A stretch of 64,000 bases of DNA, from assembly GCA_020059745.1 (NCBI GenBank), contig JAGVBK010000004.1, forward strand, positions 26,932 to 90,931, written 5' to 3'. The notes under the pieces were generated by a model. The model was not told the DNA's origin. It ran no database searches and was given only the letters and a program-made list of their open reading frames with translations. The position numbers and the translations under genes were made by a program. Shown in pieces: positions 4,877 through 46,730 of this stretch (the first letter of the stretch is position 1; each line of letters begins with the position of its first letter). Source of the DNA: Candidatus Shapirobacteria bacterium. Lineage in GTDB: Bacteria; Patescibacteriota; Microgenomatia; UM-FILTER-40-11.

Positions 4877-5740
4877 ATGAACAATTCTATAACCATTAAA
4901 GATGCTTCGGAAAAATTTTCCGAATTTTTAAAAAACCAGAAAAGAGCTTCAGCTACAATATTAGCATACACCAATGATATTGCGCAGTTGGCGAAGTTTC
5001 TTGAAGGAAAAGGAGTAGCGGCAACCACAGCCGTTAATCAGCCATTGCTTGAAGAATTTAAAGAAAACCTAAATTCAAGAGGCTATACTGCCAAATCCGT
5101 TTCCAGAAAAATAAACTCCATAAAAACTTTTTTCCGCTTTCTTAAAACAGAAGGCTATATTGAAACTGACCCGGCTGTTTCCGTTGCCCACCCAAAATAC
5201 GAGGTAAAACCGCCAAGAGTCCTTTCAAAGCTAGAATACCGAGCTTTAAGAGATGCTTGCCGCGGAGATGCCAGAATTTCTGCCATTGTTGAGTTGATGC
5301 TTCAAACCGGAATCAGGATCGGTGAAGTGGCAAACCTGAATTTAGAAGACTACAAAGGAGACGAAATTGTAATTAAGCCCTACGAATCACACGAAGGCAG
5401 AACTATTCCTCTAAACAAAGCTGCCAAAGAAGCTTTAGAAAAATATTTAAAAGAAAGGCCGGAAGTCAAAGAAAATGCTATTTTTGTAACTAAAACTGGC
5501 AGACCTTTTCTTATAAGAAACATTCGCTCTTCTATTGAGCGCTATTTTGAGCTAGCGGGAATCAAGGACGCAAAAGTAAATGATTTAAGGCACACCTGGG
5601 TTTACCATCATTTAGCAGCCGGTACCCCCCTCATTACCATCTCCAAATTGGCAGGACACAAAAGACTTTCCACTACAGAAAAATACCTGAAACTTCTTGG
5701 CGAGAAAAAAGAAGGCGCCGTTAAACTTGAAGAACTATAA
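4877..5740 (+). CDS. xerD: tyrosine site-specific recombinase (XerC/XerD-like integrase)
   Basis: 287 aa. N-terminal SAM-like domain. C-terminal catalytic motifs R...HxxR...Y (LRHTWVYHHLAAGTPLITISKLAGHKRLSTTEKYL). Confidence 0.85.
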   Translation: MNNSITIKDASEKFSEFLKNQKRASATILAYTNDIAQLAKFLEGKGVAATTAVNQPLLEEFKENLNSRGYTAKSVSRKINSIKTFFRFLKTEGYIETDPAVSVAHPKYEVKPPRVLSKLEYRALRDACRGDARISAIVELMLQTGIRIGEVANLNLEDYKGDEIVIKPYESHEGRTIPLNKAAKEALEKYLKERPEVKENAIFVTKTGRPFLIRNIRSSIERYFELAGIKDAKVNDLRHTWVYHHLAAGTPLITISKLAGHKRLSTTEKYLKLLGEKKEGAVKLEEL

Positions 5741-5754
5741 ATTTTTCATCTTAT

Positions 5755-5795
5755 CAAATTAGACCAATTTGTCTAATTAGACTAATTCGTTCTTC
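5755..5795. repeat. repeat cluster R1 made of AATTAGAC/GTCTAATT units (AATTAGAC-CAATTT-GTCTAATT-AGACTAATT)
   Basis: Seen directly 15 bp downstream of the xer stop. Contains a perfect 8-bp inverted pair plus a third unit. Confidence 0.6.
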
Positions 5796-6329
5796 TTTAA
5801 GAATTCTCGTCTCTTTCTAAACAAATTCTCTCTAAATCCCCCCTCCTCTACAAACTTTTTCTCTTGAGCTCTAAGTAATTGATCCAAAAGAAAGGTTTCT
5901 TTATAAATCAGGCAAATCATTAGGTTTGCAAACCCTTCGGGCTTTTCCAAACTCAAATTTGCCCAATTAGACAAATTAGCCAAATTAGTCTCTTTATCAG
6001 TTGTCTCTCGGAAAGCTCTAATCTTCAAAACCCTCTACTATCATTCTTTGACCAAAGGGAAAGTTTTCTTCTCCTTAGAAAGTCCTTAAAATCTTCGAGA
6101 AGTTCACCATAACTGGCCCTCGCCACCCCGGTAAGTTTAATGTTCCCTCAAAACTTTTTTCAAGAGAACCTTCAACAATATTCTGTTTACCTGATCTTGA
6201 GGCCTGGATCATTTGTTCAACCGTCCTTTTTTCAGAATATTCAGGGAGAAATTTCTGACAGAAGAGGATTGTTCCGTCGTCAATCGTTACCGCCAGCCTA
6301 TAAACAAGTAAGCTTTCACACCCTCCCAT
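5777..6329 (-). pseudogene. disrupted four-helix-bundle protein gene (23S rRNA-IVS protein family) in two ORF pieces
   Basis: ORF 6075-6329 (..LVYRLAVTIDDGTILFCQKFLPEYSEKRTVEQMIQASRSGKQNIVEGS) matches the N-terminal half of this family. ORF 5777-6028 (..LLDQLLRAQEKKFVEEGGFRENLFRKRRE) matches the C-terminal half. They are separated by a stop/gap, and repeat R2 is embedded in the second piece. Confidence 0.4.
5958..5990. repeat. repeat cluster R2 (CAATTAGACAAATTAGCCAAATTAGTCTC)
   Basis: Same AATTAG(A/C/T)C units as R1 and R3. Confidence 0.55.
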
Positions 6330-6334
6330 GTTTC

Positions 6335-6369
6335 CAAATTAGACAAATTTTTCCAATTAGTCAAATTAG
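6335..6369. repeat. repeat cluster R3 (AAATTAGACAAATTTTTCCAATTAGTCAAATTAGTGG) abutting the tRNA fragment 3' end
   Basis: Shares TTTGTCTAATT(T)GG (minus reading) with R1 and R2. Lies immediately 3' of tRNA fragment C. Confidence 0.55.
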
Positions 6370-6410
6370 TGGACCAGCTTGGATTCGAACCAAGGACTTC
6401 CAACTTATAA
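6370..6410 (-). pseudogene. tRNA 3' fragment C: anticodon-loop core TTATAA + GTTGG + variable + T arm (CTTGG-TTCGAAT-CCAAG) + acceptor CTGGTCC-A
   Basis: No matching 5' half with a CCAAC anticodon stem is present. The acceptor is complementary to the GGACCAG of fragment X. Confidence 0.5.
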
Positions 6411-6444
6411 TTTGCTTCGCAAAATATACTCTTTGGACCTTGTG

Positions 6445-6485
6445 TGGACGCGCCTGGAATCGGACCAGGGACCTGTTGTTTATAA
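6445..6485 (-). pseudogene. tRNA 3' fragment B: TTATAA + ACAAC + AGGTC + T arm (CCTGG-TCCGATT-CCAGG) + acceptor CGCGTCC-A
   Basis: No complementary 5' acceptor strand (GGACGCG) exists upstream. The ACAAC would pair with GTTGT of fragment X. Confidence 0.5.
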
Positions 6486-6514
6486 CGCACAAAGCGCGGT
6501 ATACCGAATTTGGA

Positions 6515-6589
6515 TGGTGGAGCCAGATGGACTCGAACCATCGACGGCTACTTTATAAGAGTAGTGCTCTACCACTGAGCTATGGCTCC
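6515..6589 (-). tRNA. tRNA-Ile (anticodon UAU), CCA encoded
   Basis: Perfect cloverleaf on the reverse complement: GGAGCCA-TA-GCTC-AGTGGTA-GAGC-A-CTACT-CTTATAA-AGTAG-CCGTC-GATGG-TTCGAGT-CCATC-TGGCTCC-A-CCA. Flanked by the inverted hexamers CGAATT / AATTCG. Confidence 0.85.
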
Positions 6590-31672: not shown

Positions 31673-32617
31673 ATGGAAAACAAAAGAAAACTTCTTCTGA
31701 TTGTCCTTGTTCTTTCTTTGTTTACCTTGCTTTTCTTTAGGCTTTTTTTCCCAAAACCAGCTGTGTCTCCTTTAAAAAAAGAATCAGGCGAAAAAGAATA
31801 TTTTCCTTCCTTGCCTCCCCAAAGAACAATTGTTTTAAGAGCGGTTGGCGATGTCATGCTCGGCAGAATGGTAAATGTCAAAATGCTTGAAAATAATGAT
31901 TTTAAATACCCTTTCCTAAAAACAGCAGAACTTCTTTCCACAGCTGACCTCACTTTCGGCAACCTTGAATCCCCAATTATTGATAACTGCAAAACCACAA
32001 AAACTGGCATGGTTTTTTGCGGAAGAAAAGAATCAATAGAAGGCCTGTTTTTTGCCGGTTTTGATATTGTTAGTATCGCCAATAATCATATTCTTAATCA
32101 GGGGCGCGAAGGAAGAAAACAAACCATAAAGCTGCTTTCTGAAAAAAATATTCTTGCCTCAGATTCTGAAAATCTGGCAATTGTTAATGTAAACGGCGTT
32201 TCTTTTGGTTTTCTATCGTTTGATTTAACTGTTACAAACAACCCTGAACCTCTGGTTAAAAAAGTAAAAGAAAGTGTTTCAAAAGCAGACTTGGTGATCG
32301 TCTCCCTTCACTGGGGCGCGGAATACTTAAAAGAACCATTCCCTTGGCAAAAAGAGCTGGGAAGAAAACTAATTGATGAGGGTGTAAAAGTCGTTATCGG
32401 CCACCACCCCCATGTTACCCAACCAACTGAAGAATACAAAGACGGTCTTATTTTTTATTCTTTAGGCAACTTTGTTTTTGACCAGATGTGGAGCGAGGAG
32501 ACTAAAAAAGGCCAGATTGCCGAGATTTTCTTTGAAGAAAAACAAATTAAAAGCTACAAAACCATCCCTATTTACATTACCGACTACTGCCAACCTGTAT
32601 TAGGAAGTAGTAGGTAG
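31673..32617 (+). CDS. CapA-family metallophosphoesterase (poly-gamma-glutamate capsule biosynthesis-like)
   Basis: GDVMLGR, HWG, GHHPH motifs. The last codons and the stop lie inside the left inverted repeat of the neighbouring element. Confidence 0.75.
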   Translation: MENKRKLLLIVLVLSLFTLLFFRLFFPKPAVSPLKKESGEKEYFPSLPPQRTIVLRAVGDVMLGRMVNVKMLENNDFKYPFLKTAELLSTADLTFGNLESPIIDNCKTTKTGMVFCGRKESIEGLFFAGFDIVSIANNHILNQGREGRKQTIKLLSEKNILASDSENLAIVNVNGVSFGFLSFDLTVTNNPEPLVKKVKESVSKADLVIVSLHWGAEYLKEPFPWQKELGRKLIDEGVKVVIGHHPHVTQPTEEYKDGLIFYSLGNFVFDQMWSEETKKGQIAEIFFEEKQIKSYKTIPIYITDYCQPVLGSSR

Positions 32618-32986
32618 GTTGTAGTTAGTAGTAAATTGATTAATTAATTTATTAAGCATTTTCATGACTTCTTCTAATAAACTATCCACTTTCTCATAAT
32701 TCAAATTTTTTCCAAAAGATAGCTCTTTTAAAATTTCTATCTGAGTCTCAAGCTCTGCTCCAGACCCAAAAGCAATTCTTAGAAATTGACAATAATCCTT
32801 CTTGCTCCCGCGCCTACTTCCCTCAGCTATATTTGAAGGAATAGAAACAGAGCATCTTCTCATTTGAGAAACAAGACCATAAATTTCCGATTTGGGAAAA
32901 TTTTCTGTCAACTCGAAAATAGCAATAGCCAACTTCTTGGCTTTCTGCCAAACTATCAAATCTTTATAATTGCTTACTTTGTTCAT
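32600..32986 (-). CDS. four-helix-bundle protein (23S rRNA intervening-sequence protein family)
   Basis: DLIVWQKAKKLAIAIFELTENFPKSEIYGLVSQMRRCSVSIPSNIAEGSRRGSKKDYCQFLRIAFGSGAELETQ — textbook family signature. Confidence 0.8.
   Translation of the reverse strand: MNKVSNYKDLIVWQKAKKLAIAIFELTENFPKSEIYGLVSQMRRCSVSIPSNIAEGSRRGSKKDYCQFLRIAFGSGAELETQIEILKELSFGKNLNYEKVDSLLEEVMKMLNKLINQFTTNYNLPTTS
32603..32632. repeat. left arm of an imperfect inverted repeat flanking the 4HB gene (GGAAGTAGTAGGTAGGTTGTAGTTAGTAGT)
   Basis: Its reverse complement aligns with 32993-33030 (core ACTACAACCTAC plus flanks). Confidence 0.6.
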
Positions 32987-32992
32987 TTTGAA

Positions 32993-33030
32993 CTACTCCT
33001 ACCCACTACAACCTACTTACTACTCCCTAC
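32993..33030. repeat. right arm of the inverted repeat flanking the 4HB gene (CTACTCCTACCCACTACAACCTACTTACTACTCCCTAC)
   Basis: Pairs with 32603-32632. Overlaps the last codons of the ZIP transporter gene. Confidence 0.6.
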
Positions 33031-33749
33031 TCCAAAAACATCCCTGCTATAAAAGGAAAAAGAACCCCAAAAAATGTTAGAACTATATTCAAAACCTTGC
33101 TTTTTTTGTGAATTTCCGGGATCAGGTCTGAAGCAGCGACATATAAAAAACTGCCCGCAGCAACGGCTAAAAGAAGCCCAACCACCTCTCCATTAACTTC
33201 TCTTAAAGCAAAAGAAGAAATAACCGCACCAAAGGGTGTGGCCAAGGCAACGGCCGAAGAATACTTGATTGCTTTGTTAACCGAGTATTTGCCATAAAGC
33301 ATAACTGCCATTGAGGAAATCCCCTCCGGAAACTCATGAAGTAAAACCGCCAAGGTAGAAAGAATCCCCAAACTAAAAGATGCTTCAAAACCAGCTCCAA
33401 TCACAGCGCCGTCAATTAAGGAGTGTACCAAAAGCCCGACCCAGGAAACTAAAGTAAAGGTTTCATGGGCTTCACAGTTTTCCTTTTCTTTGCAGACATG
33501 AAGAGATAAAGAATGCTCCAAAATATAAAAAAGTAAAAAAGAAAACAATACCACCGTAAGCGCTCCTGGATAAAGCTCCAAAGACTCGGGCAGTAAGTGA
33601 AGAAAGGAAAAAGAAAGTAACACCCCAGCGGAAAAAGAAATAAGGTAAATCAGGTTTTTTTGCGCCCAATCTGCTTTTTTAGCCATCAGGTAAACACCCA
33701 AAAAAGTGGCCAGACCAGCCAACATGCTAAAAAGAAAGGTGTTGAGCAT
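33027..33749 (-). CDS. zupT: ZIP-family metal transporter
   Basis: HEFPEG motif, 8 TM helices. Confidence 0.8.
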   Translation of the reverse strand: MLNTFLFSMLAGLATFLGVYLMAKKADWAQKNLIYLISFSAGVLLSFSFLHLLPESLELYPGALTVVLFSFLLFYILEHSLSLHVCKEKENCEAHETFTLVSWVGLLVHSLIDGAVIGAGFEASFSLGILSTLAVLLHEFPEGISSMAVMLYGKYSVNKAIKYSSAVALATPFGAVISSFALREVNGEVVGLLLAVAAGSFLYVAASDLIPEIHKKSKVLNIVLTFFGVLFPFIAGMFLE

Positions 33750-33750
33750 A

Positions 33751-34458
33751 CTATTTATTATAGAGGATTCCCCAAAGGTCGTGCCGGCCCAGAAAGCTTT
33801 CTCTTTTAGTAAAAGGTTCTTTTACCCACTGTCCGCTTGGCTTAAGCAGCTCTTTTGTCCAAATCACGCAAGGCTGGATTATTTCCACCAAGCTAAAGCC
33901 TTTATGTTCAATGGCTTTGGCAATTATTTCTGTGGTTTTATTAAGATCAGAAACTGGCGTTCTTGCCAAAAAAGAGCCTCCGGAAACAACCGCCAAGTCA
34001 ATAGCAGAAAGCGGCTCAAAAGGGTTACCCTGCAATGTAGTTCTGGTTTTTAGCCCCTTGGGGGTGGCAGATGAAGCCTGGCCGGTAGTTAAGGCAAAAA
34101 CATAGTTGTTGTTTACCAGGACCGTAATATCGTCATTCCTTTGGGAGGCATGAACAAGGTGGTTTCCGCCTTCACTCACAATCCCACCATCCCCCCCCTG
34201 CGCAATCACAGTTAGTTTTGGGTTTGCCGTTTTTACGCCTACGGCAACAGGGATAGAACGACCGTGCAAAGTAGCAAAACCACAGAGATTAATGAAATTA
34301 ACCATGTTTGCCGAGCAACCAATATCATAGGTAATCACCACATCTTTAGGAGCCAAATTATTTTTAATAATGGCTTTCTTAACAGCAGTCAAAAAACTAT
34401 ATCCTCCGCAGCCCGGGCACCAGGTGGGAAGATTTGGGGTGCTTAAATCTGTGTTCAT
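33751..34458 (-). CDS. korB: 2-oxoacid:ferredoxin oxidoreductase beta subunit (TPP-binding)
   Basis: CPGCG, GDGG motifs. Confidence 0.85.
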   Translation of the reverse strand: MNTDLSTPNLPTWCPGCGGYSFLTAVKKAIIKNNLAPKDVVITYDIGCSANMVNFINLCGFATLHGRSIPVAVGVKTANPKLTVIAQGGDGGIVSEGGNHLVHASQRNDDITVLVNNNYVFALTTGQASSATPKGLKTRTTLQGNPFEPLSAIDLAVVSGGSFLARTPVSDLNKTTEIIAKAIEHKGFSLVEIIQPCVIWTKELLKPSGQWVKEPFTKRESFLGRHDLWGILYNK

Positions 34459-40022: not shown

Positions 40023-41276
40023 CTAATTAGCAAATCTGTATGCTTTATCTCCTAAAAATCCATTTACTTCGCTTTTAATCATCTTCCCTTTTAAAAGCAC
40101 GGCCGGGTAAACCGTTAGTTCTCCAAATTCCTTATTAACCTTATCCATAGCCCAGGTCAATTTCTCTTTCTTTTGTTCTTCCGGAAAAAGGCTTAAAGTA
40201 AGAATCTTTTTATCGGCAAGAAGCCCCATCCAAACCCCCAAAAACCTGACTGAGCCCGGCCATTTCATTTTCAAAAAAAGCTCCCAAACAATCTCAAAAA
40301 GGTCACTTCCTTTATCAAGAAAGTACCTAACTGTTTTGTGTCTCCCGTCTCCTGTCCTTTCTCCGTTGGCAAGCTCGCCCCTAACGCTCAAACCCACCAT
40401 TCGGCCTGCCATTTTCATTTCTCTTGCTTTAAAAGCAGCTTCCTCGCAAAGATTCCTAAGAGTTGCTTTAATAAGATCAACTTCTTTTGTGTTTTCATAA
40501 AGAGTAAAGGTCCGGGAAACTGATTTTGCCTTGGAAATCTCACCCACCCTGGTAAGAAAAGAGTCATCCTCACCACAAGAAAGCTTTTTAAGCTCCTTGG
40601 CCCAAAAGGGGCCAACTCCTATTTTTAAATTCTCGATAGGAATTTCTCTTAGACTTTTAAAATTGGTTATTCCCATACTAAAAAGCTTTTTTTCCAAACG
40701 ATGGCCCAAACCACAAACATCGGAAAGTTTGGCTTTAAACAAAACCTTGTCTCGATTTTCAGGAGTGATTGCAAAAACCCCATTTGGCTTATTTATAGGC
40801 GAAGCTAGTTTTGCCAATAATCGGTTATAAGAAATGCCAATAGAACAAGTAATGTGTTCACCAACTTCTCTTTTTAAGTCTTCTTTTATTTTCTGACAAA
40901 TACCCGAAACTCCACTAAAAAAAGCTTGCGTTTGGGTAACATTCAAAAAAAGCTCGTCAATGGAAAAGACTTCTAAATCCGGAGAGTAACGGGAACAAAT
41001 CTCAATAAATCTTTTGGTTACTGAATAGTATTTATCAAAATCCGAAGGAACCAAAGCAATTCCTGGGCAAATTTTTTTAGCCTCATAAGAAGAAGTCCCT
41101 GTTTTTATGCCAATTTTTTTAGCTTCTTTAGAAGCAGCAATAATACAGCTCCTGCCCTCGCCTTTAATTATTCCCACTGGCCTACCTGCCAAGGCTGGGT
41201 TAGCCTGCTGTTCAACAGAGGCAAAAAAAGAATCCATGTCCAGATGCAAAATAATTGGCATAAACTTAAAACTCAA
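40023..41276 (-). CDS. dinB: Y-family DNA polymerase IV
   Basis: N-terminus ILHLDMDSFFASVE; little-finger domain. Confidence 0.85.
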   Translation of the reverse strand: MSFKFMPIILHLDMDSFFASVEQQANPALAGRPVGIIKGEGRSCIIAASKEAKKIGIKTGTSSYEAKKICPGIALVPSDFDKYYSVTKRFIEICSRYSPDLEVFSIDELFLNVTQTQAFFSGVSGICQKIKEDLKREVGEHITCSIGISYNRLLAKLASPINKPNGVFAITPENRDKVLFKAKLSDVCGLGHRLEKKLFSMGITNFKSLREIPIENLKIGVGPFWAKELKKLSCGEDDSFLTRVGEISKAKSVSRTFTLYENTKEVDLIKATLRNLCEEAAFKAREMKMAGRMVGLSVRGELANGERTGDGRHKTVRYFLDKGSDLFEIVWELFLKMKWPGSVRFLGVWMGLLADKKILTLSLFPEEQKKEKLTWAMDKVNKEFGELTVYPAVLLKGKMIKSEVNGFLGDKAYRFAN

Positions 41277-41379
41277 AATTCTAAACTCTAAATAATTTCA
41301 AAAATCAAATTTTAAATGTCAAAATTTTTGATTTTAAACATTTGAGTTTATTTAGGGTTTTGTGTTTGGTGTTTAGTGT

Positions 41380-41619
41380 TTAAAATATCTTCGTTATTTC
41401 CCAAGAAAATTTCTGTTGATTAAAAGCAAGCTCAAATACCGCATTTCCAGTATCAACTGAAAAGTAAGTAATTTTATCGCTGCCAATGTTTTTGGAGTAA
41501 ATAAAAACAGTTTGAAGAATTTTATAGTTCCGGTTGCGCCAGGAAAAAACAAAGGGTTTAATTCTTCCGTTTTCAAAGAGACAAACTACCCTGACTTTTT
41601 CGTTGATCTTTGTATCCAT
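41380..41619 (-). CDS. hypothetical small protein downstream of dinB (possible YolD-like partner)
   Basis: 79 aa; position only. Confidence 0.3.
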   Translation of the reverse strand: MDTKINEKVRVVCLFENGRIKPFVFSWRNRNYKILQTVFIYSKNIGSDKITYFSVDTGNAVFELAFNQQKFSWEITKIF

Positions 41620-46250: not shown

Positions 46251-46730
46251 GTGATAAATATGTTTCCATACGGATACGGCTATGGCGGTTATGGAGGTTA
46301 TGGCGCCCCTTACGGCGGATACGGCTATGGCGGTTATGGAGGTTATGGCGCCCCTTACGGCGGTTATGGTTACGGCGGTTATGGACCTGGTTATTGGGGA
46401 TACGGGCCCGACTGGGACTATACAGACTATTATGACTACAACAGAAACCTTGTTCTTGACGATAATGAAATTGAAGATCTGGTAAGTGACAATATCGCCT
46501 CTGACCCCTATATTCCCCAAAGGGATGTTAACAGTATTGAGGTAAAAGTAGAAGATGGCGTAGTTCACCTTTCGGGAACTGTACGCAATCGAAGAAGCAA
46601 GCCTCTTGCTTACGCTGATGCTTTTTGGAGCCGGGGGGTGGTTGATGTGCAAAGCAATATCAAGGTTGAAGAAAGAAGCCGGGAAAGAGAGGAAAGAGGA
46701 AGAAAGAAAGAAAAAGAAGAAAGACAATAA
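46251..46730 (+). CDS. Gly/Tyr-rich low-complexity + BON-domain protein
   Basis: N-terminal (GYG)n repeats; BON-like segment (VHLSGTVRNR); basic/acidic tail. Confidence 0.6.
   Translation: MINMFPYGYGYGGYGGYGAPYGGYGYGGYGGYGAPYGGYGYGGYGPGYWGYGPDWDYTDYYDYNRNLVLDDNEIEDLVSDNIASDPYIPQRDVNSIEVKVEDGVVHLSGTVRNRRSKPLAYADAFWSRGVVDVQSNIKVEERSREREERGRKKEKEERQ
46274..46363 (+). repeat. exact 45-bp tandem duplication encoding YGYGGYGGYGAPYGG
   Basis: ATACGGCTATGGCGGTTATGGAGGTTATGGCGCCCCTTACGGCGG occurs twice back-to-back. Confidence 0.8.

Follow-up and report, generated by a model that had tools for sequence, protein, structure and literature searches.

The intervening sequence (IVS) in the 23S rRNA gene of Coxiella is 428-444 nt long, has a 28-bp terminal stem that is cut by RNase III, and carries an open reading frame (ORF) for the S23p protein, with GACAGAT heptamers placed before the start codon (PMC4990558). 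23S_rRNA_IVP ORFs have also been found in 16S and 23S insertions of Candidate Phyla Radiation (CPR) bacteria (10.1101/2024.02.27.582315). Arrays of tandem heptamers have been described in Xanthomonas (GGGAATC; PMC4692102) and in Beggiatoaceae, cyanobacteria, and Bacteroidetes (TAACTGA; PMC4679880); array #15 of the Xanthomonas supplement overlaps the annotated start of XCC0516 (PMC4692102). Here we analyzed 64,000 nt of a Candidatus Shapirobacteria genome (assembly GCA_020059745.1, contig JAGVBK010000004.1, positions 26,932 to 90,931; hereafter the window), in which a gene for a four-helix-bundle (4HB) protein is wedged between capA and a gene for a ZIP metal transporter. We consider it likely that this locus is a promoter-less PF05635 cassette of the IVS type, which resides outside rRNA, is bounded by inverted TAG-heptamer arrays, and is lodged at the 3' ends of ZIP and capA. 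All positions are those of the window, and L-numbers denote comparison loci that were fetched.

An earlier note on this stretch had pointed to imperfect inverted repeats around the intact 4HB gene, and this observation was confirmed in full. A repeat search recovered them as two arms of 36 nt, which are 83% complementary and separated by 367 nt. The 64 kb contain exactly two occurrences of their core, ACTACAACCTAC, one per arm, with 0.08 matches expected by chance (exact or with one mismatch). Local alignment of one flank to the reverse complement of the other gave a score of 42, which is far above chance: the scores of 500 dinucleotide shuffles peaked at 29 and those of 299 window pairs of the same geometry at 28, the latter being mostly coding, so that they understate chance similarity in AT-rich intergenic DNA. 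We therefore give virtually no credence to the explanation that the repeat is a product of chance or composition, with both flanks merely being of low complexity and rich in TAG. The arms are indeed repetitive and can be aligned in several registers, but none of the shuffles or genomic controls reached the observed score, the window arms match each other far better (score 40) than they match the arms found at the same site in another lineage (15-28), and the same pattern was seen in 99 of 128 independent loci, as described below. A chance repeat is thus already refuted.

Read in the sense of the 4HB gene, the 5' arm consists of tandem heptamers with TAG at the end, which place a stop codon in all three frames (Table 1). 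Tandem Repeats Finder (TRF) reports a period-7 array of 6 copies for this region (32993-33033). The 3' arm is the complementary array. It codes for the last ~13 residues of the 4HB protein (NQFTTNYNLPTTS), and its plus strand shows TAG heptamers that are directed toward capA. With TAG recurring every 7 nt, each arm presents stop codons in all three frames to ribosomes that come in from outside. The claim that both neighboring genes end within the arms was correct, and both take their stop codons from the heptamers. In an alignment of homologues, the conserved core of capA stops at DYCQP and is followed by the tail VLGSSR; because the core ends there, we regard this tail as encoded by the arm.

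Folding the region as RNA, which the earlier note had recommended, was in line with the repeat search. The 471-nt minus-strand RNA is predicted to close with the arm stem (z=-6.3). The arms alone, joined by a short loop, gave a predicted fold of 12+12+5 pairs (~29 bp) with -46.2 kcal/mol (z=-7.1). We did not find any sigma-70-like promoter in 32300-33900, nor any promoter-like or terminator-like site between ZIP and the 4HB gene. Cotranscription with ZIP is therefore the simplest reading, and the 4HB gene is probably expressed from the ZIP promoter. rRNA is absent from the window, in which the Rfam scan gave only four tRNAs, and no Rfam family matched the cassette region even at E<=1. The proposal of an IVS-like architecture in a protein-coding context was thereby borne out, as the locus matches ORF-carrying 23S IVSs in its layout and lies in a window devoid of rRNA.

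The 4HB protein matches the full profile of PF05635 (23S_rRNA_IVP; E=1.8e-39, 134.6 bits, cut-off 33.8) as well as TIGR02436 ('four helix bundle protein'; E=1.3e-37, 128.4 bits, cut-off 24). Its SxPSNIAEG and ELETQ motifs are conserved, forming invariant alignment columns, and the closest solved structure is that of XCC0516 of Xanthomonas campestris (PDB 2GSC, E=3.8e-22), whose gene is a neighbor of bccP. By homology, the protein probably binds nucleic acids and forms a pentameric helical bundle, as do XCC0516 and Avd, the accessory protein of diversity-generating retroelements (DGRs). It is very improbable that it is itself the Avd of such an element. Similarity to Avd is weak and at the level of the family (bAvd, 29.2 bits; NF033474, 27.4 bits; PHROG 'Avd protein of DGR', 8.8e-11), and both bit scores are below the curated cut-offs of 40 and 80 bits, respectively. 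Moreover, a scan of 20 of the 33 window ORFs with at least 230 amino acids gave no reverse transcriptase, and the immediate neighbors are housekeeping genes. We excluded a DGR Avd because of these scores and the lack of a reverse transcriptase among the scanned ORFs. Exact-sequence look-ups of the 4HB protein gave no match, the public copies differing by one residue. No homologue was found in phage genomes, and none of the PADLOC defence models matched the protein.

The cassette sits in a conserved gene order, TIM-(LigT)-capA> <ZIP-TPP-POR, and its presence at this place is polymorphic. The site is occupied in the window, in L087-L089, and in L174-L177, and it is empty in L004 (GCA_018830165.1), L006, and L093. 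In these three syntenic loci capA and ZIP overlap by 9-12 nt or lie 4 nt apart, with neither a 4HB gene nor a heptamer array or repeat sequence at the junction. The empty site for which the earlier note had proposed to look in related genomes therefore exists, and no repeat sequence is left there as coding sequence. The gene ends at the empty sites are intact but different and lack any array remnant; for example, ZIP ends with ..GMFLE-TAG in the window and with ..GMFLR-TAA in the empty L006. Since the arms and the ORF are absent together from the syntenic relatives, they behave as a single unit of gain and loss.

All of the closest 4HB homologues fetched (73-78% identical; L087, L088, L089, and L174-L177) are located at the same ZIP>4HB><capA site. 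The occupied sites share their junctions: ZIP ends with ..LE-TAG, and capA reads CQPV and then runs into ATTAGGAA. At this same site the arm units have changed between lineages, while each copy is still complementary to itself. Thus, the pair GTTGTAG/CTACAAC of the window stands against CTTGTAG/CTACAAG and GAATTAG/CTAATTC in the other lineage, and in L174 both arms have expanded in a matching fashion. L001 and L002 represent the same population with 99.9% identity, and therefore no arm variation could be gained from them. Among the same-site copies, the ratio of nonsynonymous to synonymous substitution rates (dN/dS) was 0.05-0.11 in the cases that allowed an estimate of dS; between the window and the other lineage, synonymous differences reach a proportion (pS) of 0.68-0.83, so that synonymous sites are mostly saturated. 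Judging from this substitution pattern, the 4HB protein is functional, under strong purifying selection, and conserved at least as well as its housekeeping neighbors.

The same design was found far beyond this site. Our sample included 80 homologue loci (43-70% identical) from species-representative genomes, which covered Patescibacteria, Bacteroidota, Acidobacteriota, Planctomycetota, Gammaproteobacteria, and Firmicutes, together with one archaeon, and a further 80 loci from metagenomes. At each locus, the upstream flank was compared with the reverse complement of the downstream flank, and pairs of identical geometry drawn from that locus served as controls. The score was higher than that of every control in 57 of the 78 genome loci and 42 of the 50 metagenome loci that could be tested; the metagenome loci contained no same-site copies (best 68% identity) and serve as a replicate sample only. 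The arms elsewhere are tandem 7-nt units (sometimes 8-9 nt) with TAG or CAG upstream and CTA or CTG downstream, and the unit varies by locus. Strict period-7 arrays are ~16-fold enriched at 4HB flanks, and stops in all three frames were present within 60 nt upstream in 47 of 77 loci, compared to 18 of 312 control 60-mers.

The geometry of these cassettes is similar from locus to locus. In 48 clear cases the arm alignment has a median length of 34.5 nt, and the whole element spans 392-551 bp (median 467). The 5' arm ends at a median of 11.5 nt before the start codon, and the 3' arm begins around the stop codon. For the 49 loci with the strongest inverted repeats, the upstream neighbor was co-directional in 42 of 46 cases, and relative to the outer 5' arm edge its stop codon had a median position of +2 nt; the downstream neighbor was co-directional in 41 of 48, with its start codon a median of 7 nt past the 3' arm. 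A crude search for rRNA motifs gave no sign of an rRNA location in the first 80 loci. Its two hits each consist of one isolated 15-nt motif and are probably due to chance; only one of them (L075) is among those 80.

Some insertion sites recur. In four genera of Flavobacteriia (L043, 291-647; L047, L057, and L068, each ~2501) the cassette is found at the same place, between the genes for the flavoprotein and the iron-sulfur protein of succinate dehydrogenase/fumarate reductase, as assigned from end and start residues only. The heptamer units differ per genus, and L068 has 11 copies of ATAGGCA/ATGGGCA. Likewise, in seven CPR genomes (L007, L020, L021, L023, L024, L030, and L052) the gene after the cassette starts with MQFQVPQFIEVEDKIFGPL, and again the arm units differ between genera. 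From its first residues, we take this downstream gene to be PrgI-like, and its repeated presence points to a site in a type-IV-secretion-like cluster at which insertion is either recurrent or ancient. As a separate observation, one Patescibacteria contig (L090) carries two 4HB genes (261-635 and 2501-2902) within 2.3 kb. The C-terminal tail of one of them, ..HNLQVTT, resembles the arm-encoded tail ..YNLPTTS of the window protein.

The occupied and empty sites could also be explained without any insertion. The 4HB gene would then be an ordinary resident gene of the host, the flanking stem of its mRNA would serve stability or translational control, and the empty genomes would have lost a dispensable gene. 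Long vertical inheritance and strong purifying selection are compatible with such a history, as is the lack of a transposase, a target duplication, or a second copy in the window, and the fact that the closest relatives are empty fits a loss. However, we find a resident gene rather unlikely, as unrelated gene pairs of many phyla enclose the same design, fitted in to the exact base. Homologues also occur within 16S and 23S rRNA genes, have been noted in the literature between cas genes, and appear as strain-unique genes. Finally, the intact but different gene ends of the empty sites, free of array remnants, argue against this explanation as well.

Several observations weigh against our reading of the locus as an IVS-type cassette, in addition to the mostly coding nature of the control pairs mentioned above. 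The cassette junctions show neither a target-site duplication nor a direct repeat. The search for the arms elsewhere, which the earlier note had proposed, found the core in the two arms only, and there is no second copy of the arms in the 64 kb, the only part of the genome searched. The ZIP proteins of the empty genomes are the closest to that of the window (79-82% identity; L093, 70%), followed by the occupied group with 61-64%. As the closest relatives are empty while a more distant lineage is occupied, either an ancestral cassette has undergone two or three clean losses, or there have been two separate insertions into the same site. From its divergence, the insertion at the window site is old and not recent. 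A strong inverted repeat was missing in 21 of the 78 genome loci and in 8 of the 50 metagenome loci. Moreover, mismatches in the arms do not show any excess of G-U-compatible changes on either strand (64 vs 75), and therefore give no indication that selection acts on pairing in RNA, as opposed to DNA-level copying between the arms. Arm pairing could be selected in RNA, or it could be maintained in DNA via template switching between the inverted repeats.

The last of these points concerns Nostoc sp. PCC 7120. Its 4HB protein WP_010994075.1 is encoded on the plasmids gamma (L178, 1080-1650) and alpha (L179), which have a segment of ~890 bp in common (87% identity), and the copies are neighbors of ISL3-family transposase genes; on gamma, the 4HB gene comes after the end of such a gene. 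Complementarity between the downstream heptamer array (CTTCTGC) and the upstream one is lacking, and one of the copies has no upstream array at all. Since the arrays are not complementary, this pair is not a clean example of cassette mobility. The earlier proposal of a mobile element stood in part: the cassette is gained or lost as a unit, but the old same-site insertion and the lack of a target-site duplication and of a second copy leave recent mobility without support.

How the IVS-type cassette might coexist with its host operon can be proposed from its layout. It would be transcribed from the host (ZIP) promoter and ride on the host operon transcript. The arms would then pair into an RNA stem of ~29 bp, which is of the kind and size that RNase III cuts in ORF-carrying 23S IVSs. 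By this analogy, RNase III excision may remove the cassette from the host mRNA, or the stem may insulate it from that mRNA. The base of the stem would bring the upstream stop codon and the downstream start codon together and in this way preserve expression of the operon. With the flanking stop and start codons joined by the stem, the insertion would be nearly neutral for the host operon.

Table 1. Coordinates of the cassette, its neighboring genes, and other arrays and elements (window positions unless an L-number is given)
Feature	Position	Strand	Remarks
Whole cassette, 439 bp between the outer edges	32596..33034	-	5' heptamer arm, Shine-Dalgarno-like site, 4HB ORF, 3' heptamer arm
5' arm (sense of 4HB gene)	32999..33034	-	GGAGTAG GGAGTAG TAAGTAG GTTGTAG TGGGTAG GAGTAG
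ZIP stop codon TAG	33027..33029	-	From the outermost heptamer (first TAG) of the 5' arm
Shine-Dalgarno-like AGGAG	32996..33000	-	9 nt 5' of the 4HB ATG, inner end of the stem; read from sequence
4HB protein gene, 128 aa	32600..32986	-	PF05635, TIGR02436
3' arm (sense of 4HB gene)	32596..32631	-	CTACTAA CTACAAC CTACCTA CTACTTC CTAA; complementary array
capA stop codon TAG	32615..32617	+	Third TAG, within the 3' arm
capA, PGA_cap family	31673..32617	+	PF09587, E=1.1e-59; convergent with the cassette
ZIP metal transporter gene	33027..33749	-	PF02535, E=6e-33; directly upstream of the cassette, same strand
Tyrosine recombinase gene	4877..5740		Phage_integrase, E=9.4e-27; followed by the decayed 4HB-suffix gene
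Frameshifted 4HB-suffix gene fragments	6075..6329, 6025..6126, 5777..6028	-	TIGR04258
9-mer arrays (AATTAGAC-like)	5757..5787, 5954..5988, 6335..6370		TRF; bracket and interrupt the 4HB-suffix gene
ORF-less opposed period-7 pair	41262..41292, 41351..41382		AAACTCA x4.4 and TTTAGTG x4.6; between a dinB-like gene and a small ORF
ORF-less pairs/solo arrays near cassettes	L079 1244..1454; L083 3517..3599; L036 4099..4133; L033 1918..1958		

The window contains further elements of related design. The element at 5.8-6.3 kb had been taken for a second, decayed copy and thus for support of mobility. We rejected it as a copy of the 33-kb cassette, as it is a frameshifted four-helix-bundle-suffix gene of a different subfamily (TIGR04258, E=1.2e-16) with 9-mer arrays of its own; its N-terminal fragment matches TIGR02436 with 0.005, under the cut-off. 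The internal array is translated as a TNLANLSNWANLS linker, and folding predicts that it pairs with the 3' array. The element follows the same design principle in a second subfamily and is no proof that the 33-kb cassette has moved. It comes after a tyrosine recombinase gene, and the segment 4877-6640 may be what is left of an element that had integrated at a tRNA gene. Sequences that resemble tRNA 3' halves were seen at 6372-6515, just before tRNA-Ile(TAT) (6515-6589). Elsewhere, a 45-nt tandem repeat (46271-46385; 2.6 copies, 94% identity, GGTTATGG-rich) is located just upstream of a FAD oxidoreductase/Rieske gene and looks coding, with a Gly/Tyr-rich product.

The ORF-less opposed pair at 41262-41382 may be a cassette remnant that is devoid of its gene. 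Its hairpin is only weakly better than those of shuffled sequences in the prediction (z=-2.1). Other ORF-less inverted heptamer pairs, and solo arrays with units like those in the arms of the 4HB cassette at the same locus, were found 0.6-1.3 kb from that cassette in the comparison loci (Table 1), and XCC0516 has a GGGAATC array at its start. These are hints at a much wider reading, which we regard as distinctly doubtful: the 4HB cassettes would represent the protein-coding version of a single, very large class of array-bounded hairpins that has gone unrecognised, and the 4HB pentamer would act on the arrays by binding, protecting, or propagating them, as RAYT does for repetitive extragenic palindromic sequences (REPs). 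ORF-carrying rRNA IVSs, ORF-less inverted heptamer pairs, and solo arrays (GGGAATC, TAACTGA, and cyanobacterial ones) may also belong to such a class.

Questions about the origin of rRNA IVSs and the role of their S23p ORF date back to the early 1990s. If IVSs are the rRNA-resident case of a mostly intergenic cassette, they become testable in cultivable bacteria, for instance with XCC0516 of Xanthomonas or the flavobacterial copies. One of the most abundant protein families of unknown function would then have a shared genomic context, as opposed to a shared function, and the presence of 4HB genes inside operons, cas loci, and insertion sequences would be explained. The layout would also amount to a design rule for harmless insertion, with stops in all frames at both ends and a stem that joins the stop and start codons of the neighbors. 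As to annotation, genes beside such cassettes take their last codons from the cassette.

Several known systems share features with this locus. REPs and RAYT (REPINs) likewise combine a small gene flanked by inverted short repeats with copies of these repeats that occur elsewhere without the gene. However, RAYT is a HUH transposase-like enzyme and REPs are palindromes of 20-40 nt, whereas the repeats of the cassette are heptamer arrays, and the 4HB protein is not known to have catalytic activity. The Correia elements of Neisseria, hairpin-forming miniature insertions which are cut by RNase III, are also small and bounded by inverted repeats; they are cotranscribed with host genes, as the cassette probably is, and the stem of the cassette is a plausible RNase III substrate as well. 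In contrast to the cassette, elements of the Correia type have no ORF, and they show defined terminal repeats and target duplications. With the Avd of DGRs, the cassette protein shares a homologous four-helix-bundle fold family and probably the pentameric state, but the cassette comes without a reverse transcriptase among the scanned ORFs, a template repeat, or a variable repeat.

The GGGAATC and TAACTGA arrays resemble those of the cassette in their period of 7, their mostly intergenic location, their position directly next to start codons, the stops in three frames, and the sometimes convergent pairs. They differ in that they have been described as solo or paired arrays with no link to 4HB genes (PMC4692102, PMC4679880), whereas the cassette arrays form a complementary pair that encloses a gene, with a unit that varies by locus. 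No description of a link between heptamer arrays and 4HB genes was found in the full-text literature searched, which has most subscription journals outside its scope, and the general rule of array-bounded 4HB genes is probably new.

The closest known counterparts of the cassette are the ORF-carrying 23S IVSs of Coxiella burnetii and Leptospira (PMC4990558). The length is almost the same (439 bp vs 428-444 nt), both have terminal inverted repeats that form a stem of ~28-29 bp with a mismatch or bulge, and both carry a PF05635 (S23p) ORF in the loop with tandem heptamers just upstream of its start codon. We did not file the cassette as an IVS, because the defining feature of IVSs is residence in rRNA, at the tip of 23S helix 25 or 45 or in 16S, and the cassette lies between two protein-coding genes and provides the stop codons of its neighbors. 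Its ORF is intact and under purifying selection, whereas the S23p gene of Coxiella is reported to be decaying and probably untranslated (PMC4990558). Taken together, the 4HB locus belongs to a cassette architecture that is very widespread and that extends the design of rRNA IVSs to ordinary operons.

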